The translations under genes and the position numbers were made by a program. From Thermoplasmata archaeon (GTDB lineage: Archaea > Thermoplasmatota > Thermoplasmata > GCA-020350865): DNA of 12,514 nt. How positions within the stretch are numbered: the stretch's first letter is position 1; each line of letters opens with the position of its first letter. Of the stretch, positions 1-12,514 are shown one piece after another. The notes under the pieces were generated by a model. The model was not told the DNA's origin, searched no databases, and saw only the letters and a list, made by a program, of their open reading frames with translations. The stretch spans positions 1,314,055 through 1,326,568 of the forward strand of contig CP070751.1 in the NCBI GenBank assembly GCA_020348445.1, written 5' to 3'.

Positions 1-718
1 GACAGTAAGAACCATGAAGCGCAGATTTAAAACCAAGATCCCCATCTCGACACTCAACAACTGGATCAAAAACTATGGAGACGAGCTCCCCGCAACAAAG
101 CTCAGAAAGAAGTACACCCTCGACCCCAACCAGACAATCAAAACAAGACGCCTCTTCCACCCCCAACCCTACCTATTCAAGGTCCACACCCTAAAGCTCA
201 ACATCAAAGGCAAGCAGTTCCCTGAACTCAAACAGTACATCAACGGCATGCTTAACAATCCAATGGACCATCTTTTCCAGTCAAAGAAGGTCCTACGGGT
301 ATCAGAATTAGCAAACACCATAAATCTTCCCAAGCCAAATGTAAGATTAGTAAAAAACAGTCCTGCATCAAGAATGACAGATCTAGCACTGGAACTTGCC
401 AAGACAAAATCAGAACGTCACCAAAAGGTAGAAGAATTCTTCCTGGTAAATGACTCAGCCACTGTAGCGGTTGAGGTTCCGGTCTACCTAACTGAAAAAG
501 AATCAGGATTCAAAAAGCCCCTCACAGGTCACATCGACTTGATCCAGGTAAGGGGGAATCGTATACACATTTTGGACTACAAGCCAGAGAAGGGAGGAAA
601 TGTGGAAAACCAGCTCTCACTCTATGCAAAATGTCTGAAAAAGAGAACAGGATTATCAAATATCACATGCGCGTATTTTGACGAGAATATGTATTTTCAG
701 TTCACACCATATTATTGA
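1..718 (+). CDS. HTH + PD-(D/E)XK (RecB-like) nuclease protein, copy 1; 5' end lies outside the window
   Basis: The window begins in-frame at (AT)G ACA GTA AGA ACC ATG, equal to MTVRTM in copies 2 and 3, so the true start is upstream. HTH helix ISTLNNWIKNY; nuclease motifs E-VPV...GHIDL...DYK...QLSLYA. Confidence 0.9.
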   Translation, partial: TVRTMKRRFKTKIPISTLNNWIKNYGDELPATKLRKKYTLDPNQTIKTRRLFHPQPYLFKVHTLKLNIKGKQFPELKQYINGMLNNPMDHLFQSKKVLRVSELANTINLPKPNVRLVKNSPASRMTDLALELAKTKSERHQKVEEFFLVNDSATVAVEVPVYLTEKESGFKKPLTGHIDLIQVRGNRIHILDYKPEKGGNVENQLSLYAKCLKKRTGLSNITCAYFDENMYFQFTPYY

Positions 719-1082
719 TGCTTTATTATACCACGTAGTGTAATACCAAAAGGTATAACTATCGACATATTCTTCAGAGAATGGGTTATTAAGATCACCA
801 ACCGTTGAACACGTCACTAAGTTTGAAGCAAACTTTTAATGTTTATCGTTAATAACATATTATTTTTTTCAATTTATATTTCATTCTTATTAATAATATA
901 TTGGAAAACCAACCCGCCAAAATACATACTTTTTACCTAGACAAGAGCAATACGATTCTCGCCATAATTAAATGAATTTATAACGATTATCATTGGCATA
1001 TACCTCAAAAAACCCATAAAACTGGTAAAGAAAAGCTTAAATTCGCCAAGAACGATATGTGAACAGGCCTATTTATCAGATA

Positions 1083-1088
1083 GGAGGG
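1083..1088 (+). promoter_or_regulatory. Ribosome-binding site of the large PKD protein
   Basis: GGAGGG ending 7 nt before the ATG at 1096. Confidence 0.6.
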
Positions 1089-1095
1089 AATATTA

Positions 1096-4000
1096 ATGAA
1101 AAAAGAGACAGGGAAATTATCGAATTTTATTATTGTCGGTATGCTTGTTCTGGGTTCGTTCTTGGCAATGGCCGGACCTTTGGCCACGATAACGGCCAGC
1201 GCGGACGCAGGAATAGATCAGGTCGTGGATGTCAATACCATTGTTAATTTTGATGGGTCAGGCTCCTTTGGTGTGGGTGACCTGGAATATACATGGTATT
1301 TTAGGGACGGAACAATAACCACAGTTGATTCCCCCTACATAGCACACACATATTCAGAGGAAGGAATTTATGAAGTCGGGTTGCTTGTCAAGGATTCCAA
1401 CGGTTACTATGACCTTGATACTGTTCAAATAACTGTGAAGAATTATTACCCAGTAGGAGACCCAGGTTTTGACAAGGTTGCAAATGAAGATCAAATTGTA
1501 AATTTCGATGCTTCTGCCTCGTCCGATCTCAACAACGATATCGTATCCTATGAATGGGACTTTGGGGACGGTACAAGTATGACAGGAATAAGCGCTTCAA
1601 ATGTATACGAAGATGAAGGCACCTACTACGCAAAACTCAAGGTGACAGACAACGATGGGGCTTACGATGAGGATTTAATACTTGTGACAGTAAATAATGT
1701 TGCACCTTCTGCAGATGGGAGAGGCAACAACGAGGTTGACGATGATGTAACGATCTATGAGGACGAACAAGTAACCTTCGATGCTTTTTTGAGCTCTGAC
1801 ACACCCTCCGATGTGCCACTTTTGAAATACTCATGGGATTTTGGGGACGGTTGCATGGGCTCTGGGATCACATCGGCGCACACCTACACAAAACAAGGGA
1901 TTTATATGGCTATTCTGAAGGTAACGGACGACAATGAGGCTTTTGCCATGGACACTATCATGATCAATGTGATCAATTCTCAACCAGTCGCTGATGCAGG
2001 TTTGGATCAAGCAGTCAACGAAGGATCATCCTGTTTCTTCGATGGAAGCGGCTCGTCAGATACTCAGTCTGATGAACCTCTGCTTCTTTACTCCTGGGAT
2101 TTTGAGAAGGACGGAGCATACGATGATACCGGCTGGTATTCAAAATATTCCTGGTGGGACAACGGTCCTATAGAGAATGCATTGAAAACAGAAGATGATG
2201 ATGGTGCTGCGCAGCAAGATAACAAAAAGATCACGGTAAATAATGTGGCGCCTTTACCGGGAATATTCAATTACAGCACATCTGAGATAACGATCGTGAA
2301 TTTCAGTTTGAGGGTAACAGGTGAGAAATATCATGATGTGCAGGCCACGCTTTATGAGGATTCGACGCAGATAGGCTACATGCAGGTGATAAGGGCCCCA
2401 GGAAACCCAAATGAGCAAATGGAATTCATCTACAATGTCGAAATACACTCTGAGAATACCTATGAGGCGAAGATCATCTACACTCCAGAAGATGACCCGA
2501 TCAACGGTCAGATAAAAGGCGCATCGCCCTGCTGGTTCAGTCTTTATCTTGAGGATGGGAACAAGTTCACGTTCTTCCGATCTTTCAATGTGAACAAGCC
2601 GGATGAATGGGAATGGACCATAGATTTGAGCAGTATCAGAAAGATGACATTCGATGCTGAGATATACGATCCAGGAATGGACATTGTGACCTTCGGCTGG
2701 GATTTTGGAGATTCGTCACCAATGGTGACTCGCTCATATTCGCCAGGCGGCGATCATCCCACAAAGGTATGTGATATGGTGATGCATGTCTATGTTCTTC
2801 CCAAGGTTTACACCGTTGTATTGAATTCATTTGATGATGACGGTGCCCACAGCATCTATGCTCTTATTCTGACCAATACACCTGACTCAGTAACATTGGA
2901 TAATCTTGCACCGAGAGCCCAGGCGTTCAGCAATAGAAGTACAGCTTTAGAAGATGAAGAGTTCGAGTTCTTAGGCTCAGGAATAGATCTTTTGAATGAT
3001 GGATTGACATATAGTTGGGATTTTGATGATGGCCATTCAGAAACAGGTCAGGTTGTTAACCATTCATATGATGATGAGGGAATTTATCTTGTGACATTGA
3101 CTGTAACAGATTCATTGGGCGCGCATGGAAAGGACTATATCTTCGTGAAGGTAACAAATGCACATCCTATTGCAGAGGCAGGTCAAAACCAGGTTGTGAG
3201 CGAGGATGATGTTGTCAAGTTCTGGGCATTTGATTCCTGGGATACGATTTCTGATTTACCTTTGCTGAGCTATGCCTGGGACTTTGGGGATGGAAGCAAA
3301 GGCTGTGGTATCACGACGGATCACATATACACGAAGAAAGGCGTGTACACAGTAACCTTGACTGTTCAGGACAACAACGGAGCTATGAGCAAAGATATCG
3401 TAAACATTACAGTAAATAATCCTGCTCCATACGGCATTTTGATGGTTGCAGAGCCAAACGCAAAAGAGGACGAGCTCATACACTTCAATGGCAGCGCTCA
3501 AGACACCGCATCTGATGAACCGCTGCTTGCTTTCAACTGGGACTTTGGTGATGGCAAAATAAGCTACGGAACTAATGTGACGCATTCGTATTCTTTGCCA
3601 GGCTTATATGAAGTGGAATTGACGATCACAGACGATGATCTAAGCTCGGCAAACAAAAGCATCTCAGTAATGGTGGTTAATGTGTATCCTACGGGTTTTG
3701 CAGGCGCAACTCATGTTGAGCTGTACGGACCTGCAATGACAGTTGAATTTGAAGGCAGAGGCTTTGATACGTTTTCAGATGGATCTTCCCTTAACTATTC
3801 ATGGAATCTGGGAGGAGGTGATTTTGAATATTCCCAAACCATAAACATGGATTTCACAGCCACAGGCATTTATGACGTGAGTTTTGAGGTTAAAGACGTT
3901 CATCTTGGATCCAGCTCTACGATAATGATAAGAATCGATTTTGTTCTGGATTCTGATGGAGACATGATGACAGACGAGGATGAGCAAGCCAAAGGCACTG

Positions 4001-6498
4001 ATCCATTTCTATGGGATTCAGATGGCGACGACCTAATAGATTACTGGGAGGTGTATTATTATTCTACAGATCCACAGCTTCCCGATACAGATAACGATGG
4101 AATGGATGACTGGGAGGAAATTACGTTTATCGGGTTCACAGATATCGATGAGGATGGAATATTCAATCCCTTGGATTGGGACAGCGACGGGGATTGGATC
4201 AGGGATGGTATGGATACCCACCCGATGTTGTACAACGATGTTGATGGCACTCCCATAACCAGGGATGCGATCTCCGTAAGCAATACTATCGGGTATGGTG
4301 TGAGTGTTATTATGTATGGTGGGTTCTCCTACGATAAACCAACTCTTTCAGATATCACACCCCCCGTTAAAATAGCAGGAGAAACCGGTATCTATGTAAG
4401 GGTGCAAACCATGGCATCACCACCATTCAATGCTCAAATAAGAATTAGGTACGATAAAAATGCAATTCCAGGAGGCATTGCCGAGGAAAGACTCAGGCTT
4501 TTCGAGTGGTCCTCCGTAGAGAACAAGTGGCTTATCGTTTCAAACTCAGGTGTTGATTTAACACACGGCTTTGTTTGGGCAAAAGTCTCATATTTCACGG
4601 ATTACGGGATTGGCGATATCGGTCTGGTGGATTCTGACGGCGACGGATTAAATAATTGGCAGGAGATCAACACAAAATACACTGCCAAATTTGTTGGAGG
4701 AGGGCTTTCACCGACCTACTATTCCGGTCCACTGTACGTAAAAAACCGCAGGATACAAATCCAAATTCCACCTCAAAATATATATGGAAATAAAGGGGCA
4801 GTGGACCTGTTCGGCCTTGGGTTTAAGAAGGCTGACTTTGCGATTGACGACACATGGAGGTTAACCAACGGAGGATATTTAGAGTATGCCAAGGTCTATG
4901 TTTCTGAGGTCTATAACGCAATCTCTGCAATAATGACTTTTCAATTCACTGGGAAGGATAAATATATGCGAATTGACGTCAGGGGTTTCACGGACCCCTT
5001 TAATCCAGATACGGATTCCGATGGATTTTTGGACGGTGACGAACTCAGTAAATATAAAACAAATCCAATCGATACAGACACCGATGACGATCGTATAAGG
5101 GATGGGAGCGACTTGGACCCATTAGTAGATTTGCATATTATAGTTCATATCAAGGAAATATTGGAAATAGACCGTATAGACACCTGGCCTTTCGGAATTC
5201 GCAATAATGGCGATTTCTATGCAAAGGTTAATATCTATGGTAAGTGGCATAAAAGTCCAGAATATGGGGGTATGGCTCATGGATATCCTAACTACTTCGC
5301 TTCTCAGGATATACCGGATAATGTCCAAAATATATACATAAAGATCGAGCTATGGGATGCTGACTGGCCCAGTGCAGACGACCAGGCGGACATAAGCCGT
5401 TCGGGGAAAACGCTGGATTTGACTTATGATGTGAGGACGGGAATGTGGAGTGGCGAGGACTCGCTAAATGATAGAAACGGTCTTGGACATGCGAGCGGAA
5501 CTGAAGATGGCAGCAACAATAAGAATGAGGGCGATGTAGACATATGGTTCGATATATATCAAAATGATTATGATAACGATGGATTAGCATATTGGAAGGA
5601 AGTGCACAGTCTTGGTACAAATCCAAAGTCCACGAATGGTGACTCAGATGGGGATGATATGGCGGATTGGTACGAAGTCAGATACGGGTTTAACAGATTG
5701 GACCCCTCTGACGCTCAGAGCGATTCCGATGGAGACCATCTTACTAATCTAAAGGAGTATCAGGTTGGAACAGATCCGAGATTCTTTGAAGTGAATCTCG
5801 TGGTATCTTTAGATTGGGACGCCTCTGAAAGTTATATGGACAAATATGTAAGTGGAATGAGAAAGGCATCAAATTTTCTATATGATGTAACTGATGGATA
5901 TCTATATTTCAGATGTGTATTCATATATGATAATGAGGAAAATTGGGATGAAGCAGATATTAGGGTTTACAACGGGACAGCTTGGAAAAATGATCAACCT
6001 CATTGGCCCCAAGCCAAAACAGGGGGATTTGACAAAGGAGGTTTTATCACCATGCCTCAATACTTAAATCCCTACGGATTTAATATCCGTTATGGTCCCA
6101 CCCGGAAAGAGTACTATAAAGCAATAGTTCATGAAAGCGGGCATTATATTATGCACAGTTATGATGAGTACTGTCGTTGGAGTGATACAGAATGGGGTTG
6201 GGTAAAGATTCCCTCATCGAGAAGACCTCATACTTTCATGAACGACGCGTTATTGTATTCAGAGGCCAGCACCCCGACAACCTATAAAAAGACAAAATAT
6301 CATATAACCGCACAATGGGAAGAAGCTGGGATGTCTACCTGGGAATCGTTTTTCTACAATTATACTAATAGGATATGGTTCGATCTAGATAAAAATGGTG
6401 TCGATGATACAATGTTTCTGAATTCATATACCACCGTCTCGGGACCAACCATAACTGTTGATGGAGGCTTTACGATCGTAAAAACATACAATACATAG
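1096..6498 (+). CDS. Secreted/cell-surface 1800-aa protein: signal peptide, ~9 PKD domains, ~11 bacterial TSP3-like Ca-binding repeats, C2-like beta domain, C-terminal CLCA-like zinc metalloprotease domain
   Basis: Basic then hydrophobic N-terminus (MKKETGKLSNFIIVGMLVLGSFLAMAG). Repeated PKD signatures (YxWDFGDG...HxYxxxGxYxVxLxVxD). DxDxDG...E...TDP repeats. C-terminal HESGHYIMHSYDEY motif preceded by ASNFLYDVTDGYLYFRCVFI. Confidence 0.9.
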   Translation: MKKETGKLSNFIIVGMLVLGSFLAMAGPLATITASADAGIDQVVDVNTIVNFDGSGSFGVGDLEYTWYFRDGTITTVDSPYIAHTYSEEGIYEVGLLVKDSNGYYDLDTVQITVKNYYPVGDPGFDKVANEDQIVNFDASASSDLNNDIVSYEWDFGDGTSMTGISASNVYEDEGTYYAKLKVTDNDGAYDEDLILVTVNNVAPSADGRGNNEVDDDVTIYEDEQVTFDAFLSSDTPSDVPLLKYSWDFGDGCMGSGITSAHTYTKQGIYMAILKVTDDNEAFAMDTIMINVINSQPVADAGLDQAVNEGSSCFFDGSGSSDTQSDEPLLLYSWDFEKDGAYDDTGWYSKYSWWDNGPIENALKTEDDDGAAQQDNKKITVNNVAPLPGIFNYSTSEITIVNFSLRVTGEKYHDVQATLYEDSTQIGYMQVIRAPGNPNEQMEFIYNVEIHSENTYEAKIIYTPEDDPINGQIKGASPCWFSLYLEDGNKFTFFRSFNVNKPDEWEWTIDLSSIRKMTFDAEIYDPGMDIVTFGWDFGDSSPMVTRSYSPGGDHPTKVCDMVMHVYVLPKVYTVVLNSFDDDGAHSIYALILTNTPDSVTLDNLAPRAQAFSNRSTALEDEEFEFLGSGIDLLNDGLTYSWDFDDGHSETGQVVNHSYDDEGIYLVTLTVTDSLGAHGKDYIFVKVTNAHPIAEAGQNQVVSEDDVVKFWAFDSWDTISDLPLLSYAWDFGDGSKGCGITTDHIYTKKGVYTVTLTVQDNNGAMSKDIVNITVNNPAPYGILMVAEPNAKEDELIHFNGSAQDTASDEPLLAFNWDFGDGKISYGTNVTHSYSLPGLYEVELTITDDDLSSANKSISVMVVNVYPTGFAGATHVELYGPAMTVEFEGRGFDTFSDGSSLNYSWNLGGGDFEYSQTINMDFTATGIYDVSFEVKDVHLGSSSTIMIRIDFVLDSDGDMMTDEDEQAKGTDPFLWDSDGDDLIDYWEVYYYSTDPQLPDTDNDGMDDWEEITFIGFTDIDEDGIFNPLDWDSDGDWIRDGMDTHPMLYNDVDGTPITRDAISVSNTIGYGVSVIMYGGFSYDKPTLSDITPPVKIAGETGIYVRVQTMASPPFNAQIRIRYDKNAIPGGIAEERLRLFEWSSVENKWLIVSNSGVDLTHGFVWAKVSYFTDYGIGDIGLVDSDGDGLNNWQEINTKYTAKFVGGGLSPTYYSGPLYVKNRRIQIQIPPQNIYGNKGAVDLFGLGFKKADFAIDDTWRLTNGGYLEYAKVYVSEVYNAISAIMTFQFTGKDKYMRIDVRGFTDPFNPDTDSDGFLDGDELSKYKTNPIDTDTDDDRIRDGSDLDPLVDLHIIVHIKEILEIDRIDTWPFGIRNNGDFYAKVNIYGKWHKSPEYGGMAHGYPNYFASQDIPDNVQNIYIKIELWDADWPSADDQADISRSGKTLDLTYDVRTGMWSGEDSLNDRNGLGHASGTEDGSNNKNEGDVDIWFDIYQNDYDNDGLAYWKEVHSLGTNPKSTNGDSDGDDMADWYEVRYGFNRLDPSDAQSDSDGDHLTNLKEYQVGTDPRFFEVNLVVSLDWDASESYMDKYVSGMRKASNFLYDVTDGYLYFRCVFIYDNEENWDEADIRVYNGTAWKNDQPHWPQAKTGGFDKGGFITMPQYLNPYGFNIRYGPTRKEYYKAIVHESGHYIMHSYDEYCRWSDTEWGWVKIPSSRRPHTFMNDALLYSEASTPTTYKKTKYHITAQWEEAGMSTWESFFYNYTNRIWFDLDKNGVDDTMFLNSYTTVSGPTITVDGGFTIVKTYNT

Positions 6499-6586
6499 AT
6501 ACAAATCTAATTAGTGTAAAACAATTATAATTTTATATACATTTCGTTCCTATAAATTAAATAATAATACATAAACCAAGACTTTC

Positions 6587-6707
6587 ATTTCACAAAGGGC
6601 TCCGCCCTTTTAATCCCGCTAAAAATTAGTAAACAAAAATATTTTTATATCTCATTCACAAAAGGCTACGCCCTTTTAATCCCCAAAAAAATTTAGTAAC
6701 CAAGAAT
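6587..6707 (+). repeat. Two tandem ~55-65 bp repeats, each with a mini-hairpin followed by TAATCCC
   Basis: AAAGGGC-TCC-GCCCTTT-TAATCCC (6594-6617) and AAAAGGC-TAC-GCCCTTT-TAATCCCC (6660-6684). Both are preceded by TTCAC and followed by an A-run then TTAGTAA. Periodicity 66 bp. A degenerate third start (TTTTCACGAAGGC) lies at 6721. Confidence 0.85.
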
Positions 6708-6746
6708 AGCTTTTCATATGTTTTCACGAAGGCCTCGCAGAGCCGC

Positions 6747-6919
6747 AAAAAACCGCCCCCATCACCCGAGGATCGTAACTCCCCCCTCAAAAACCGCCAC
6801 ACATACCCCCTCTGCGCACCCAAAACCGACCCCATCTCCCAAATCCCGCAAAAACCCCAAGATTCCCACCACACATACCTCCTCTGCAAGGCCCAGAAAC
6901 CCCCCAAATCGCGGGATTA
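6747..6919 (+). repeat. C/A-rich conserved non-coding block, copy A (internal ~72-bp duplication)
   Basis: 6861-6919 is 58/59 identical to 10527-10585. ACACATACC(C/T)CCTCTG occurs at 6799 and 6871. Confidence 0.9.
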
Positions 6920-6968
6920 GAGGGACGCAGCCAGCGCATCAAAATCGCACCAAGGATCATACCCCCTC

Positions 6969-7127
6969 ATCTCACGCAAATCGTATACGAAATACGAGTG
7001 ATAGATACCCGATCCCATTTACGAAACTCGTGAGATGCACGCCAAATCCTTTACGAAACGCGTGAGATACTTCGTATACGAAAACCGTGCGATATCTCAC
7101 GAAGATTGTATACGAAATTCGTGCGAT
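6969..7127 (+). promoter_or_regulatory. Array of 17-bp sites (consensus TACGAAANNCGWGNGAT); putative operator/iteron/end-binding sites of copy 2
   Basis: Direct units at 6986, 7020, 7052, 7077, 7111; inverted units at 6969-6985 and 7094-7110; palindromic cores TCGTATACGA. The repeats are seen directly; the binding-site function is inferred. Confidence 0.75.
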
Positions 7128-7160
7128 AGATTGAAATATCCACAATCCATCCACCAGCTA

Positions 7161-8177
7161 ATGGCAAAGAAAAAAACCCTAACCACCATGTTCGAGGATT
7201 TCAAATTCGAACCACCAGCATGCCCGCACTGCGATTCGAAAGAGAAAGTAGTCAAAAGCGGCACAAGATCCCTTAAAGAGGATACAGCGTAGGTTTTTCT
7301 ATGCAGAACCTGCAACAAGCGCTTTTCCGATCGTAAACTTCCAAAGACTTCATACCCACCCAAAGTCATTCTTACCGCGCTAACATATTACAACCAAGGA
7401 CACACTCTCGATATGACGGTACGCACCATGCGTAGAAAATACAAGACTAAAATCCCGATAACAACCCTCAGCAGTTGGATTTCACGTCATCAAGAAGAAC
7501 TCCCATTCACCAAGCTCAGAAAGAAGTACACCCTCGACCCCAACCAAACAATCAAGACAAGGCGCCTCTTCCACCCACAGCCATACCTCTTCCGGGTCCA
7601 CACACTCAAACTCAACATTAAAGGCAAACAGTTCCCGGAACTCAAGCGATACATAAACGATATGTTGAACAATCCAATGGACCACCTTTTCCAATCCAAG
7701 AAGGTTCTGCGGGTATCAGAATTAGGAAACACAATCAACATCCCCAAACCCAATATCCGATCTGTAAAAGACAGCCCCGCATCCAGGATGACGGATCTAG
7801 CATTGGAACTTGCTAAGACAAATTCAGAGAGGCATCAGAAGGTGGAGGAGTTCTTCCTGGTAAACGACTCGGCAACTGTTGCGGTGGAGATCCCCGTTTT
7901 CCTCACCCATAAAGAAGCAAGATCCCACGGAATCTCCATTCCTAAGACCCTTACAGGCCATATAGACATTCTCCAGGCAAGAAGTAACAGAATCCATATC
8001 CTAGATTACAAACCAGATGCTCAAAGCGAGAAACTGGCAAGGGAGCAACTCACACTATATGCAATCGCATTAGGTAAGAGAACCGGGATCGTTCCTTCGA
8101 AAATTATATGTGCATATTTCGATGAGAATGGATATTACCAATTCAAACCAGGGCATGTTTCCAAGGTTCATGGTTAA
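7161..8177 (+). pseudogene. Zn-ribbon + HTH + PD-(D/E)XK nuclease protein, copy 2, interrupted by an in-frame TAG at 7290-7292 (338 codons if read through)
   Basis: ATG 7161 gives MAKKKTLTTMFEDF...CPHC...DTA*VFLCRTC...LTYYNQGHTLDMTVRTM, colinear without frameshift with intact copy 3 and in frame with ORF 7413-8177. GHID/DYK/QLTLY motifs are retained. Confidence 0.85.
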
Positions 8178-8251
8178 TACCATTGATGTATAAAATATAC
8201 TTAGATAATTACGACAAAATTAAGTAAAACAGATTATAGGATGGATTGGAC

Positions 8252-8791
8252 ATGTCAAAAGTGTACGAATTTAAAGCGGCTTTTAAACGTCGAAAAGGAC
8301 TTTGGCGCCGAATCCAGATCAAAGATGATCAAACTCTCAAGGATTTCGACAGCATCATGCGTAAAGCATTTAATCATGATAAGGATGACCATCTGAGCGA
8401 ATTTTTCCCTGGAAGAGCATGGAGGTCAAAGGGATTTGGCGAGATAGATCCCACTGGAAAAGGTAAGGGCTCTAAATTGCGAATTAAAACACTTGGATTG
8501 AGCGAGGGGGACAAACTGGAATATGTCTATGATTTTGGAGATGACATCCAGCATATTATTACCTTTGAGAAGATGGTAGAACCCAAGAAGGGAACATCAT
8601 ATCCCCGCATTATTGCCAAGAACAAGCCAAAATATAATTACTGCGAAGCATGTAATAAACAGGGTAAAAAAACGAAAGCCACATGGGTATGTATTGAATG
8701 TACAAATGAGAGGGAAAAAGCTTTGTTTCTTTGTGATGATTGTTTGATAAAGGAGCATGAGGAACATTATGCAGACGAGCTGACATACTAA
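8252..8791 (+). CDS. pRiA4b ORF3-like family protein (also known as IS1096 passenger TnpR-like) with a C-terminal Cys/His zinc-finger-like tail
   Basis: Family-typical motifs WRRIQI...TLxDF...AF...DHLxEF...L...GDKLEYVYDFGDDIQHII; tail CxxC...CxxC...CxxC...H. ATG 8252 is preferred over TTG 8246. Confidence 0.8.
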   Translation: MSKVYEFKAAFKRRKGLWRRIQIKDDQTLKDFDSIMRKAFNHDKDDHLSEFFPGRAWRSKGFGEIDPTGKGKGSKLRIKTLGLSEGDKLEYVYDFGDDIQHIITFEKMVEPKKGTSYPRIIAKNKPKYNYCEACNKQGKKTKATWVCIECTNEREKALFLCDDCLIKEHEEHYADELTY

Positions 8792-8890
8792 AAATTCTTT
8801 ATGTTGTTAGTTTTATGACTACGCTATAATTAGTTATGGAAGAAAACATATGAAGGTAAAACTTCATGAATCCTGATAAAATTCAGAGAC

Positions 8891-8933
8891 GAAAGTTTAA
8901 ATAGGATGTATAGCATTTGTATTACATGGTGAT
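8891..8933 (+). promoter_or_regulatory. Archaeal-type promoter (BRE/TATA) and RBS of the TA operon
   Basis: GAAAG-TTTAAATA (8891-8903) about 35-40 nt upstream of ATG 8938; GGTGAT at 8928-8933. Confidence 0.6.
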
Positions 8934-8937
8934 ATAT

Positions 8938-9180
8938 ATGGCGAGTTCGCAGCTGAATGTAAGGACTTCTGCTACCCTAATCGAGGAATTAGATGCTTTG
9001 GTTAACCGCGGTTTTTTTAGAAACAGAACCGAGGCTGTAAACGAGGGTATAAGGCTTTTGATCCGCAGGTATAAGGCTATGAAGATTGCAGAGAAGATCG
9101 ATAAAATAGCCATGGGAAAGAAAAGCAAAAAAAGTCTCACAGAGGCCTTATTGGAGTTACGGGACGAGGAAGACGCATGA
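8938..9180 (+). CDS. vapB: Ribbon-helix-helix (CopG/Arc/MetJ-type) antitoxin, VapB-like
   Basis: QLNVRT...LIEELDALVNRGFFRNRTEAVNEGIRLL is an RHH pattern. Start follows the GGTGAT RBS. ATGA overlap with the downstream PIN gene. Confidence 0.8.
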   Translation: MASSQLNVRTSATLIEELDALVNRGFFRNRTEAVNEGIRLLIRRYKAMKIAEKIDKIAMGKKSKKSLTEALLELRDEEDA

Positions 9181-9626
9181 GTGAATATATTGACACAAGC
9201 GTTGTAGTGAAATGGTTCAGGGAAGGTGAAGATCACCGAGACGAATCGCTAAAACTGCGTGAGCGTATAATAAACTTCGATTGCGAATTTATAATGTCGT
9301 TTTTTGGTGTAATGGAATTGGTAAGGGCTCTCGTGAAAAATAAATATCCGAAAGATAAAATCGAGGACGCTTTTCAGAGTATGATGGATTTGTACAAGAT
9401 TGATGCAATAAAAAGCGTAGGGATTGAGGAGGCTCTATATCGAGCCAAGGATATTTCTATAGAGCTAAATCTTTTTGCAGGTGATGCTCTTCATCTGGCA
9501 TCGGCGATACAATGTGGATGTAAAATATTCTGGTCAGAAGACAAACATCATTTGAAGGCTTCTACAATAAAATTCATGAAGCGATATAACATAGAGATAA
9601 GGTCACTCTCACAGATTAAAATATAG
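9177..9626 (+). CDS. vapC: PIN-domain ribonuclease toxin, VapC-like
   Basis: YIDTSVVVKW...MELVRAL...GDALHLASA...SEDKH acidic PIN motifs; 149 aa; translationally coupled to the RHH gene. Confidence 0.88.
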   Translation: MSEYIDTSVVVKWFREGEDHRDESLKLRERIINFDCEFIMSFFGVMELVRALVKNKYPKDKIEDAFQSMMDLYKIDAIKSVGIEEALYRAKDISIELNLFAGDALHLASAIQCGCKIFWSEDKHHLKASTIKFMKRYNIEIRSLSQIKI

Positions 9627-9671
9627 AGAACACTCATGAGAGCTTAATTAAATAGAATTCTTGGACTTTTA

Positions 9672-9890
9672 ATTTCACAAAAGGCTCTGCCCTTTTAATC
9701 CCCAAAATTTAGTAACTAAGAATTATTTAGATACGTTCTACCGAGGGGTCACACCCCTCTAACCCCATTTAAAATTACTACCAAACGTCCAGGGGGAGAA
9801 ATCCCCCTGTAATCCCCTTTTTTTTTATAGCCTCCCTTGTCGGCTGACCGAATAGGAAAATTTCCGAAGGGCTATTCCCCTTCTAATTCC
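9672..9890 (+). repeat. Cluster of four mini-hairpin+TAA(T/C)(C/T)CC motifs
   Basis: AAAAGGC-TCT-GCCCTTT-TAATCCCC (9679-9703), whose flanks match the 6587/6654 copies; GAGGGGT-CAC-ACCCCTC-TAACCCC (9743-9766); CAGGGGGA-GAAA-TCCCCCTG-TAATCCCC (9790-9817); GAAGGG-CTATTC-CCCTTC-TAATTCC (9866-9890). Confidence 0.85.
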
Positions 9891-9937
9891 GCAAAAGAAT
9901 ATAAACGGGGAATTACATTATCACTTGGGCGATAGCA

Positions 9938-10270
9938 ATGGAAGAACGCCATAAGGAATTTAGGAAATGCAGAAAGGTGATAAAGATCTGGTTGAAAAAA
10001 GGGAGAGCTGAGGCTCAGAAGATCCCGGGTGCTAAAAAGTATATCTGGAATCTTGAGGCCAATCACTATGTTACCTTTGACGGCTCCCAATTGTTTGTAG
10101 AGGAATTTACTGATGTTACAGTTCCTCTCATGGTACTATGCGGAACAGGATACGTTAAGCGCGAGGAAACCGAAATAGGATATATTTATATTCCTAACGG
10201 TGATTACAGAAAATTCTTTGCTGACATCCTACCAAGGGCTCTGCCCTCTAACCCCGAAAAAAAATTATAA
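9938..10270 (+). CDS. Hypothetical protein (110 aa), possibly a captured or truncated gene fragment
   Basis: Protein-like composition with no recognisable family and no clear RBS. The frame is open from 9905, and the last codons run through a hairpin motif (10234-10255). Confidence 0.5.
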   Translation: MEERHKEFRKCRKVIKIWLKKGRAEAQKIPGAKKYIWNLEANHYVTFDGSQLFVEEFTDVTVPLMVLCGTGYVKREETEIGYIYIPNGDYRKFFADILPRALPSNPEKKL

Positions 10271-10321
10271 ATTAATAATTACTATAGACGTTCTTACGAG
10301 GGGCTACTCCCCTCTAACCCC
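10234..10321 (+). repeat. Pair of mini-hairpin+TAACCCC motifs, a direct repeat of the pair at 9679-9766
   Basis: AGGGC-TCT-GCCCT-C-TAACCCC (10235-10255) and ACGTTCT..GAGGGG-CTACT-CCCCTC-TAACCCC (stem 10298-10314); 66-bp spacing versus 64 bp in the 9679-9766 pair. Confidence 0.8.
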
Positions 10322-10410
10322 AAAATGAAATTTTTCATTACCTTTCCGGTCTGAGGCTTAAGACGATCCTGTTGTCTTATCATAACCCGCCAGGCTCCCC
10401 ATTCCCGCAG

Positions 10411-10585
10411 CCAAAAAACCGCCCCCATCCTCCAAATCCGGCAAAAATCCCCAGATTCCCGTAACACATACCCCCTCTACTCGGCCAAAAACCGAATCCA
10501 CCTCCCGAATCCGGCAAAAAACCCCAGATTCCCACCACACATACCCCCTCTGCAAGGCCCAGAAACCCCCCAAATCGCGGGATTA
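10411..10585 (+). repeat. C/A-rich conserved non-coding block, copy B (two ~73-74 bp tandem units plus conserved tail)
   Basis: Units start CCAAAAA(A)CCG at 10411 and 10485; ACACATACCCCCTCT at 10464 and 10537; tail 10527-10585 is 58/59 identical to 6861-6919. Confidence 0.9.
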
Positions 10586-10634
10586 TAAGGGCTCACCCAG
10601 TGCACCAAAATCCATCTCCGAACCACAATCCACC

Positions 10635-10793
10635 AACCCCCGCAGATGGCATGCCAAATACGAGCGTTAAAAAGACAAAACCATGTGCCAAATACGGGAG
10701 GTGAGCCCTGAAATTGGTGCCAACTGCGAGCGTTAGATGGCATGCCAATTACGAGCGTTAACTCCCGCAGATGGCATGCCAATTACGAGCGTT
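10635..10793 (+). promoter_or_regulatory. Array of 17-bp sites (consensus TGCCAANTRCGRGCGTT); putative operator/iteron/end-binding sites of copy 3
   Basis: Direct units at 10652, 10686, 10718, 10743, 10777; inverted units at 10635-10651 and 10760-10776; palindromic cores TGGCATGCCA. Function is inferred. Confidence 0.75.
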
Positions 10794-10825
10794 GATATCA
10801 AATAAGTCCAGGACAATTCCCTGTT

Positions 10826-11794
10826 ATGTCCAAGAAGAAAACCCTAACAACAATGTTCGAGGATTTTCACGAGGAGCGCCCCTCATGCCCTAAATGCTCA
10901 TCATCTGAATACGTTATCAAGTCTGGCAGTCGAACAGTCCGAGAAGAAACAGTTCCTTTATACTTTTGTAAATCCTGCCAAAAGCGGTTTTCGGACCGTA
11001 AGCTCAGTCACACCTCTTATTCACCAAAGCTCATTCTTTCAGCGCTAACATACTATAATATGGGCCACACATTAGATATGACAGTAAGAACCATGCGCAG
11101 AAGATACAAAACAAAAATACCCATTACAACCCTTAGAAACTGGATCAAGCGTTATGGAGAAGAGCTTCCATTCACCAAACTAAGAAAAAAATACACCCTT
11201 GACCCCAACCAGACAATTAAAACAAGGCGCCTCTTCCACCTCCAACCCTACCTCTTCCGAGTTCACACCCTCAAACTCAACATCAAAGGCAAGCAGTTCC
11301 CAGAACTAAAGCAGTACATCAACAATATGCTGAGCAATCCAATGGACCACCTTTTCCAGTCTAAGAAGGTCCTAAGAGTGTCAGAACTTGCAAACACAAT
11401 CGCCCTCCCAAAACCAAATATCAGATCAGTAAAAGACAGCCCGGCCTGTCGGATGACGGACCTAGCATTGGAACTTGCTAAGACAAATTCAGAGAGACAT
11501 CAGAAGGTGGAGGAGTTCTTCCTGGTAAACGACTCGGCGATAGTAGCAGTAGAAGTTCCAGTCTACCTAACAGAAAAGGAATCAGAATACCACAAACCTC
11601 TCACAGGCCACATAGACCTCATCCAGGTCAGAAGCAACCGCGTACATATCATGGACTACAAGCCCGACACGAGCGGGAATGTTGTAAACCAACTTCTATT
11701 ATACGCAAAATGTCTTAAAAAGAGGACAAGACTGACAAATATCATATGTGGGTATTTTGACAAAAATGCTTATTTTCAATTTAAACCCCCCTGA
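10826..11794 (+). CDS. Zn-ribbon (IS1 InsA-like) + HTH + PD-(D/E)XK (RecB-like) nuclease protein, copy 3, intact
   Basis: CPKC-x-VIKSG-x-CKSC Zn ribbon; HTH ending TTLRNWIKRY; C-terminal E-VPV, GHIDL, DYK and QLLLY motifs; 322 aa. Confidence 0.9.
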   Translation: MSKKKTLTTMFEDFHEERPSCPKCSSSEYVIKSGSRTVREETVPLYFCKSCQKRFSDRKLSHTSYSPKLILSALTYYNMGHTLDMTVRTMRRRYKTKIPITTLRNWIKRYGEELPFTKLRKKYTLDPNQTIKTRRLFHLQPYLFRVHTLKLNIKGKQFPELKQYINNMLSNPMDHLFQSKKVLRVSELANTIALPKPNIRSVKDSPACRMTDLALELAKTNSERHQKVEEFFLVNDSAIVAVEVPVYLTEKESEYHKPLTGHIDLIQVRSNRVHIMDYKPDTSGNVVNQLLLYAKCLKKRTRLTNIICGYFDKNAYFQFKPP

Positions 11795-11823
11795 TAAACG
11801 ATCCTGCAAATAATAACGGTAGA

Positions 11824-11831
11824 TTTATAAA
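11824..11831 (+). promoter_or_regulatory. Putative TATA box for the DUF5678-like/protease pair
   Basis: TTTATAAA ending 32 nt before ATG 11864. Confidence 0.45.
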
Positions 11832-11863
11832 GCAAGAAGGAAATAGACATAATTGGTATATTT

Positions 11864-12082
11864 ATGAAAATCAAGACTATACTAGAGAATCACAAGGACA
11901 GGTGGCTAGCTATTAGAGTGAGCCGGTTCGGTGAGAATAACATCCCATTGGAAGGGGAACTGATAGCGGAGGACGAGGATCGGGAAAAGCTCTGGAAAAA
12001 GGTCCCCCAAAGCAAGAAGAAAGCGATTTATATCCTGTTTTCTGGGGATTATCTAGAAGAAGGATACGCCGCGGCGTTCTAA
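11864..12082 (+). CDS. Small DUF5678-like protein
   Basis: 72 aa with the pattern H/YxxRWxAI...ELIAEDEDREKLWKKV; directly upstream of a retropepsin-like protease, the typical context of this family. Assignment is from recognition, not a search. Confidence 0.6.
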   Translation: MKIKTILENHKDRWLAIRVSRFGENNIPLEGELIAEDEDREKLWKKVPQSKKKAIYILFSGDYLEEGYAAAF

Positions 12083-12094
12083 AGTGGAATTTTT

Positions 12095-12481
12095 ATGAGA
12101 TTCAATATTGATAGGAGTGAACCTTTAATTGTTTTACCTGTGGGATTAGTTGGCAAATCCGCCAAGTATATCGTGAACATGGCTTTAGATACGGGTGCGA
12201 CATTTGTTATGATCCCATGGGATGTGGCTGAGCGCCTGGGATATGACCCAGCAATAAGCGATGATAGGATATCCATAACCACAGCAAGTACAGTTGAGAA
12301 AGTTCCCCTTATTACCCTTGAAGAGATAGACGTTCTAGGACAGTCGTTAAAGAATGTTAAAGTGGCGGTTCATGATCTGCCTGCGAAAAGTAGGGTTGAC
12401 GGTCTTTTAGGTTTAAGTTTCCTGAATAACTTTAATCTTAATTTAATGTTCAAAAAGGGATACCTTGAACTGGAAGAATGA
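12095..12481 (+). CDS. Retropepsin-like (clan AA) single-domain aspartic protease
   Basis: Catalytic ALDTGA, flap ITTAS and C-terminal DGLLGLSFL motifs; 128 aa. Confidence 0.88.
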   Translation: MRFNIDRSEPLIVLPVGLVGKSAKYIVNMALDTGATFVMIPWDVAERLGYDPAISDDRISITTASTVEKVPLITLEEIDVLGQSLKNVKVAVHDLPAKSRVDGLLGLSFLNNFNLNLMFKKGYLELEE

Positions 12482-12514
12482 AGCATAAATATAATAAGGC
12501 GAAATCGTATTTTG

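Follow-up and report, generated by a model that had tools for sequence, protein, structure and literature searches.

A PD-(D/E)XK nuclease with a transposase-type DNA-binding domain and its five-unit site array: a candidate cassette-shuffling module of Thermoplasmatota archaea

Introduction

Which enzyme could rearrange the gene cassettes of a locus beside which no recombinase is seen is the question raised by a 12.5-kb stretch of archaeal DNA (positions 1 to 12,514; the window in what follows), a single contig of the 5.16-Mb scaffolded genome of an uncultured Thermoplasmatota archaeon from sediment. The window carries three diverged, same-strand paralogs of one nuclease gene, here named NUC (2–718, 7161–8177 and 10826–11794, on the plus strand like all window features given below), which share 75–84% protein identity in pairwise comparisons and are followed by cargo genes that are mutually unrelated by Pfam. 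Paralogs and unrelated cargo alike had been recognized in an initial annotation of this DNA, which took the modules for gene-capturing elements inserted head to tail at a hotspot in the manner of integrons or Tn7. Here we advance a different reading, in which an array of sites directly upstream of NUC, the S array, serves as the binding platform of the nuclease and as a junction of recombination, with NUC acting there. Taken as a whole this reading is tentative, and we put its chances somewhat below even.

To our knowledge, the systems known so far to move gene cassettes employ enzymes of the DDE, HUH, serine, tyrosine or Cas1 kind. NUC, a PD-(D/E)XK nuclease whose reading head is of transposase type, would represent a new enzyme class among them if it does act at an array of its own, and would then be a candidate enzyme for the integrase-less, 'recombinase-less' cassette arrays of this genome, of related Thermoplasmatota and of uncultured archaea. 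Even under the rival explanations weighed below, the NUC proteins and their arrays would provide a natural set of matched protein–site pairs, possibly useful for engineering DNA-binding specificity. A limited literature search found no description of the NUC fusion or of its site arrays, and a paper on the phylogenomics of Cas4 contains neither the word 'transposase' nor the word 'zinc' (PMC5704561).

A DNA-binding domain of the IS1 InsA type fused to a Cas4/RecB-type nuclease

NUC joins an N-terminal Zn ribbon and helix-turn-helix (HTH) of the IS1 InsA type to a PD-(D/E)XK nuclease of the Cas4/RecB type. The matches in Pfam and NCBIfam that point to this make-up are weak: PDDEXK_1 scores 20.7–28.8 bits against a cut-off of 22 bits, Cas4 (TIGR00372) 19 bits against a cut-off of 65, and IS1 InsA (NF033558) matches residues 21–113 with an E-value of 8.5e-5. 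The same two databases show no DDE domain in NUC, the C-terminal half being PDDEXK_1/Cas4-like, while the N-terminal 110 residues share 27–30% identity with the DNA-binding region of a genuine DDE transposase of the same genome that carries PF03811. Among 40 aligned homologs, with identities down to 30%, the Zn-ribbon residues C48 and C51 are invariant and C21 and C24 nearly so; in the nuclease half the motif residues D264, D277-Y-K279 and Q289 are invariant, Y293 is nearly invariant, and C308 is the only cysteine that comes close to invariance. The AlphaFold2 model of copy 3 has a predicted local distance difference test (pLDDT) score of 90.7, and the structures nearest to its nuclease half in Foldseek are Cas4 SSO0001 and the AddAB nuclease, followed by Exo5, RecE and MGME1.

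A symmetric homodimer model of NUC scores 0.63 against 0.08 for the best of three controls. Of the proteins solved as one-chain pairs 20 of 30 reach this mark, and of those solved as single chains 1 of 23; at least 85% of the contacts are common to the runs and the pLDDT of the partner is 82 or more. Such a predicted homodimer fits palindromic sites. From these models and the conserved residues we propose that NUC may be a dimeric, sequence-specific nuclease with an intact set of catalytic residues.

Comparison with the two parental types underlines the unusual combination. With Cas4, RecB and AddB (PDDEXK_1) the nuclease half shares the fold and the motifs D, (D/E)xK and QxxxY, but it has no four-cysteine iron–sulfur cluster and no CRISPR or helicase partner (the window contains no cas genes), and its partner in the fusion is a DNA-binding domain predicted to be sequence-specific and to have a cognate array. 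With IS1 and IS1595 elements NUC shares a homologous InsA Zn ribbon and HTH, predicted binding sites that lie at one end of the unit and adjoin or overlap the promoter of the gene, occurrence in several copies and annotation as 'transposase-like'; it differs from them in a catalytic domain that is of the Cas4/RecB type and not DDE, and in having no terminal inverted repeats, no downstream sites and no near-identical copies.

The nearest relative of the NUC N-terminus in the source genome (G000) is the DNA-binding part of a DDE transposase of 562 aa that combines a SWIM finger and an InsA-type Zn ribbon with an IS240/rve_3-like core and is found at two places (L007:691-2379, that is G000 2900059-2901744, and G000 4396915-4397706). 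Three repeats spaced at 15 bp lie upstream of the L007 gene. We considered this transposase as the real enzyme behind the arrays and rejected it, since it is present in two copies that do not adjoin S arrays and has different repeats.

The S array and its linkage to NUC

Both leaders visible in the window keep the order of hairpins, C-rich block, site array and gene that the initial annotation had given them. In full they run as follows: at least two H hairpins, a C-rich block of ~73-nt units, a block termed J, an S array of ~160 bp, a AGATTGAAATAT-like box and, some 30 bp further on, the ATG of NUC. The S array comprises five units spaced at 34/32/25/34 bp, of which units 1 and 5 are palindromes of ~38 bp and units 2–4 half-sites. 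Each unit is made up of a 6-bp palindrome (GTATAC, GCATGC or GGATCC), followed by (G/C)AAAT, one variable base and a distal octamer such as CGTGAGAT or CGAGCGTT. The array ahead of copy 2 (6969–7131) has the core GTATACGAAA and the distal part CGTG(A/C)GAT, and the array ahead of copy 3 (10635–10797) repeats its geometry with the core GGCATGCCAA and the distal part CGAGCGTT, so that the two differ in both variable parts. Each array holds 5–6 sites against the 0.07–0.09 expected by chance, and S sites occur nowhere else in the window. A search of the window for transposon ends found no S sites downstream of NUC on either strand. A conserved DNA site at the 3' end of NUC was likewise considered and rejected, because homology ends at the stop codon and the stretch that is kept there is the coding motif CAYFDENxYxQF. 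Just ahead of copy 2 lies a putative box of B recognition element (BRE) and TATA type (7128–7145, read from the sequence), a motif that is kept in relatives.

Linkage of array and gene extends well beyond this locus. NUC is present in several copies in the four other genomes of the genus (3–16 matches each) and, at ~40% identity, in a second family of the class. It also has more than 120 metagenome homologs, which lie mostly on short contigs that break at the gene and are variously named 'transposase-like protein', 'PD-(D/E)XK nuclease family protein' or 'IS1 family transposase, partial'. Directly upstream of every examined full-length NUC with assembled upstream DNA, in G000 to G003 and in close metagenome relatives, stands an S array of 1, 4 or 5 units. 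In subfamilies at 37–42% identity (contigs C114, C131 and C30 of G002, and G040, in two taxonomic families) the units are unrelated in sequence and the spacing is 34/31/25/34. The expectation that homologs carry the leader together with variable cargo thus holds for the full-length genes of the genus with assembled upstream DNA, and their cargo shifts context; the picture of mostly solitary, leaderless homologs in fixed synteny does not hold, nor does that of a one-off segmental duplication free of presence/absence polymorphism among relatives.

The HTH and the core of the S units also vary together. When the two residues that follow TL in the helix IPxxTLxxWI are compared with the 6-bp palindrome, the core GCATGC goes with RN (TLRN) in six of seven cases, the seventh having TN (TLTN); GTATAC goes with TL(N/S)(S/N) in all eight cases; and GGATCC goes with (N/D)D in all three, there with two serines before TL (SSTL(N/D)D). 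The arginine is present in different backgrounds, namely in copy 3 and in the L021 group, and L051 combines GCATGC with a copy-4-like background; the pattern is therefore not purely a matter of clade structure. In this comparison the palindrome and a single recognition helix seem to have evolved in step. Given also the fixed geometry and the upstream linkage, we consider it very likely that S is the cognate binding platform of NUC.

The S array as a probable junction

Closely related contigs place breakpoints within the array itself. L074 and L075, found in different samples, agree at 99.9% identity over the stretch that begins at S unit 2 and takes in NUC and its cargo; upstream of unit 2, L075 has the canonical order of H, C-rich block, J and unit 1 and L074 has unrelated DNA. 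L047 and L073 are 99.8–100% identical through NUC, cargo and the first S unit, beyond which identity falls to ~80–88% and the unit type changes. Unit 5 contains a Fic cassette in L044 and L045, and the core of unit 4 is interrupted by an insert of ~95 bp at no fewer than five loci, which include arrays of different types. Remnants of S are fused to the last 17–30 codons of NUC in G001 and in G003:C47, and arrays that stand without NUC are often mosaics of unit types. Remnants of the gene are biased towards its 3' end, with ~17 C-terminal pieces against ~6 of other kinds, some of them at contig edges. Same-strand tandem NUC arrays recur on five or more independent contigs: in G003:C92 and G002:C36 (three copies each), in G001 (three, remnants included), in G040:C126 (two) and on the overlapping contigs L074 and L054. 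It is likely that S is a hotspot of exchange, insertion and deletion, a judgement that we hold a little less firmly than that on binding.

The ~95-bp insert in unit 4 is rich in GTGCAC palindromes and is found in GTATACC and in GGATCC arrays (L015 ~3400-3460, equivalent to G000 4953400-4953460; G000 3027540-3027650, 3029230 and 4630420-4630520; L065 ~1900-2050). It is either a small element that targets this core or an optional part of the array.

A proposed mechanism and what weighs against it

We propose that a module consists of an S array, a promoter, a NUC gene and one or more cargo cassettes. A NUC dimer would bind the five-unit array, with its two palindromic outer units and three half-sites at fixed spacing, just upstream of its own promoter. 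NUC probably also regulates itself, because the layout resembles that of a res site ahead of its resolvase gene. The nuclease would cut or process DNA at the palindromic units, and the repair that follows would lead to exchange, insertion or deletion of adjacent DNA. As a result, cargo cassettes with promoters of their own and H-hairpin ends would be shuffled, modules would be stacked head to tail, and 5'-deleted NUC remnants and orphan S arrays would be left behind. That NUC itself makes or processes the break may be so, although we would not wager on it. That NUC is the catalytic engine of a new cassette-shuffling class, a sequence-programmable PD-(D/E)XK nuclease at a res-like five-site array whose paralogs have split into specificity groups, is more doubtful still.

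By analogy, the layout of S and NUC comes closest to the res site before a resolvase gene, and the arrays that result come closest to those of the IS26 type. Tn3-family res sites are platforms of ~120–160 bp with several subsites in fixed geometry, lying right upstream of the gene of their binder and combining crossover site and operator; the likeness is one of layout, since no serine recombinase is involved here and the chemistry would be that of a nuclease and repair, not conservative strand exchange. Translocatable units and pseudo-compound arrays of IS26 similarly alternate same-orientation copies of one element with unrelated cargo, but copies of IS26 are identical and encode a DDE enzyme, in contrast to NUC copies, which are 75–85% identical and are each predicted to have a site specificity of their own. 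Measured against integrons, IS1/IS1595, Tn7, Cas4 proper and Rpn, NUC modules fail at least one defining feature of each.

Several observations count against the mechanism proposed here. Cas4/RecB-type nucleases are typically end processors and not site-specific cutters. Paralogs of NUC within one genome are only 75–85% identical and none are near-identical, so that NUC itself shows no recent copy-and-paste, and neither terminal repeats nor target duplications were found for its modules. No array lies upstream of the 48–49% relatives L059 and L061, or of relatives at 31–33% identity. The co-variation of helix and core comes from a small sample, is partly confounded by phylogeny and has one exception. 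Breakpoints in S might require no dedicated enzyme and be the product of ordinary homologous recombination between dispersed repeats. Most S arrays of the source genome, some 20 in number, have no NUC beside them, and the leader is therefore not private to NUC. A DNA profile run at an E-value of 10 found no NUC remnants at the orphan arrays of G000, which led us to reject the notion that they are relics still accompanied by such remnants. In G001 the orphan S types do not match the two resident NUC types, and orphan arrays as a trans-regulon of resident NUCs were rejected for this mismatch.

Alternative readings

The paralogs of NUC are old and diverged, resembling families under diversifying selection, and their neighbours are mostly toxin–antitoxin (TA) or defence genes (VapBC, MNT/HEPN, Fic, AbiEii-like and PDC-M08B). 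Both features would suit the main rival explanation, in which NUC is an autoregulated toxin or antiviral nuclease like Rpn/YhgA, S is its operator only, the arrays are accretions of defence islands and the mosaicism stems from homologous recombination of the host between leader repeats. Rpn proteins, which are multi-copy, 'transposase-like' PD-(D/E)XK paralogs, proved to be nucleases with toxic and antiphage activity (PMC5350276, PMC10400941). Like NUC they were long annotated as transposases, occur as several paralogs per genome and have been linked to illegitimate recombination and defence. In favour of an operator, S abuts the promoter. Rpn/YhgA (PF04754) nevertheless belongs to a different PD-(D/E)XK family, RpnA has little or no sequence specificity, and Rpn genes have neither site arrays nor a Zn ribbon and HTH. 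NUC does not match PF04754 (Transposase_31/PDDEXK_2) at an E-value of 0.01 or better, finds no fitting family in PADLOC or PHROG beyond weak Cas4 and exonuclease matches, and lacks a conserved partner gene. It is hard to rationalize why a nuclease of defence should be directed against a roughly 20-bp site array within its own genome, five sites kept in fixed geometry down to 37% identity exceed what an operator usually needs, and non-homologous junctions are present inside S. We regard this explanation as unlikely, though it is the most serious of the competitors.

Arrays that stand alone bear on a second alternative, namely that NUC is a domesticated, transposase-derived transcription factor which governs the expression of its own gene and of the cassettes through S, with a nuclease domain of minor or structural importance. 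S does lie just upstream of the BRE/TATA box, InsA, to which the DNA-binding domain is homologous, is a known repressor, and orphan S arrays usually have co-oriented genes 40–150 bp downstream. The conservation of the catalytic residues across the 40 homologs argues against this, as does the mismatch between orphan S types and resident NUC types in G001. Moreover, five orphan arrays of the source genome (G000 2343650-2343800, 4624300-4624460, 4630220-4630376, 4637500-4637657 and 4643770-4643921, all on the minus strand) lead into a shared, non-coding C-rich block of 150 bp that contains TCCAACCCTACTCGTAACCC, and not into a promoter and NUC. A purely regulatory role is improbable.

The same low probability is assigned to the view that the modules are passengers of a classical element (an integron, an IS26-like unit or a Tn7-like transposon) whose recombinase lies elsewhere or in assembly gaps, NUC being one more cargo gene. 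The assembly leaves some room for it, since the window is bounded on either side, immediately ahead of base 1 and behind base 12514, by scaffold gaps of 100 N, and genome completeness stands at 82%; five HUH Y1 genes are present elsewhere in the genome, and H hairpins end the cassettes much as attC sites do. Nonetheless, no recombinase stands beside any of the ~10 arrays examined in five genomes and metagenome contigs. Tyrosine recombinases (PF00589) are represented genome-wide by only two short fragments, neither near the window, no serine recombinase domain was found with Pfam, and no DDE or AAA+ partner occurs in the window or the related arrays examined, in accord with the earlier remark that DDE, HUH, serine and tyrosine recombinases are absent from the vicinity. 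The co-variation of S and NUC makes NUC the partner of the repeat, not a random passenger, and the cassettes have their own promoters.

Co-oriented accessory and TA cassettes parted by hairpin-bearing repeats do recall integrons, including archaeal ones (PMC9668308), and integrase-less attC clusters. Unlike these, the present arrays have no IntI, their cassettes are not promoterless genes under a common promoter, and the recurrent gene is a nuclease; attC sites are imperfect palindromes of 55–140 bp, which the 7-bp-stem hairpin with TAAYCCC that ends the cassettes here does not seem to resemble. Tn7-like elements depend on TnsA, the DDE enzyme TnsB and TnsC, of which the DDE and AAA+ components have no counterpart in these arrays. 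The integron- or Tn7-like insertion first suggested for this locus is not borne out, there being no near-identical copies, terminal repeats or target duplications, and most S arrays lacking NUC. Of the wider idea of gene-capturing elements, the linked leaders, tandem arrays and mobile cargo stand, and the insertion of whole modules at a hotspot finds no evidence. Exchange, insertion and deletion at the S array fit the data better than insertion of the integron or Tn7 kind.

An iteron/initiator replication module of integrated plasmid-like elements, to which direct repeats and palindromes right upstream of the gene of a binding protein would be the classic layout, is very improbable given 3–16 copies per chromosome, often in tandem, adjoining sequence that is C-rich with no AT-rich unwinding element, and no similarity of NUC to any Rep, primase or helicase.

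Gene copies, hairpins and cassettes of the window

Copy 1 of NUC is cut at its 5' side by the contig end and is equivalent to residues 85–321; because the contig ends at an N gap, its 5' part and leader are to be taken as missing from the assembly and not from the genome, and the array of modules may extend beyond the window on account of the bounding gaps. Copy 2 has an in-frame TAG at 7290-7292. Pyrrolysine read-through of this codon was considered and rejected, as the genome has no PylS over the cut-off, and the copy is therefore either broken or made from an internal ATG at 7413. Copy 3 is intact and encodes 322 aa (P0003). In a quick tree each window copy is nearer to sequences of other contigs than to its two neighbours and all three fall in one clade, a topology that is not decisive on recent tandem duplication as the origin of the array. 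Among distant relatives, NUC homologs of 376 aa with 31–33% identity form part of a conserved, overlapping five-gene operon (81, 148, NUC, 133 and ~440 aa; L083:369-4880, L084 and L085), which may be a virus or plasmid module.

The H hairpin, a 7-bp stem followed by TAAYCCC, recurs as previously described behind cargo 1 (6589–6627 and 6655–6693) and behind cargo 2 (from 9674 onward). Across 34 copies from several genomes the stem shows 86% pairing; double-sided, compensatory changes number 24, whereas shuffles give 11 ± 2.6, and no slid register does as well. An interpretation of H as a genome-wide repeat of the repetitive extragenic palindrome type was rejected after a strict scan that gave 48 matches against 23 in the control and clustering in this window only. 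Rfam returned no known RNA families. The first C-rich block (6720–6898, with units at 6749-6816 and 6822-6898) is followed by a J block (6899–6968) that contains an inverted H (6911-6932, against 6598-6619), and H copies therefore flank the C-rich block on both sides. The second C-rich block and J, again with an inverted H, occupy 10380–10634 (units at 10415-10491 and 10488-10564).

Cargo 1 (1096–6498) is a PKD-repeat surface protein of 1800 aa (Pfam PKD_4, E 4e-123). Cargo 2 comprises a PRiA4_ORF3 protein (8246–8791) and a VapBC cassette (8881–9712; VapB 8917-9180, VapC 9177-9626) with its own TATA box and a terminal H. Further hairpins (at 9738, 9862, 10228 and 10293, in the region 9738–10331) surround a small cassette, orf110 (9938-10270), which is found in G001 too. 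Cargo 3 (11864–12481) encodes a 72-aa protein of unknown kind and a clan AA aspartic protease. The last 38 bp of the window (12477–12514) hold the promoter of a nucleotidyltransferase-type cassette that is cut by the contig end and that stands directly behind NUC copies in relatives. This cassette and VapBC each have BRE/TATA-like boxes of their own, as read from the sequence.

Cassettes reappear elsewhere in other company. VapBC is 85% identical in G001 and G003; it lies 26 bp after a full NUC in G003:C359, where PRiA4_ORF3 is not present between the two, after an S remnant and 17 NUC codons in G001, and after PRiA4 in the window. The 72-aa/protease cassette is located behind copy 3 in the window and behind a NUC remnant of 19 codons in G002:C36. 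In L074 a pair made up of a 238-aa protein and DUF6036 follows a full NUC; in G001 this pair stands behind a NUC that has lost its 5' part and is fused to a truncated glgB. In the latter locus (L037:8514-10012) glgB is truncated after residue 391 and fused directly to a NUC fragment (residues 214–321). The five genomes of the genus yielded no further gene of the alpha-amylase family. We considered glgB as an interrupted target and rejected it, since any of the five has at most its truncated N-terminal part and there is hence no empty site.

When the flanks of the window were compared with relatives in search of empty sites, the left flank proved to belong to a multi-copy surface-protein family, and relatives of the right flank in G001 and G003 had no NUC nearby. 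A 20-kb region of the source genome (L008, G000 4618001-4638000) holds at least eight leader copies (C-rich block, J and S) on the minus strand and no NUC copy; these copies separate HTH-NTase/HEPN genes, an AAA_14/DUF234 ATPase, a C-type lectin and large plus-strand genes. The 72-aa/protease pair of cargo 3 matches component B of the candidate defence system PDC-M08 in PADLOC (E 1e-9), and is 82% identical in DNA to its counterpart in G002:C36. The 1800-aa PKD protein has a full-length paralog 2.3 Mb away on the minus strand (G000 3598943-3604468, 65–74% DNA identity), and another large PKD/CARDB protein is encoded behind a NUC copy in G001 (L038:11762-16183).

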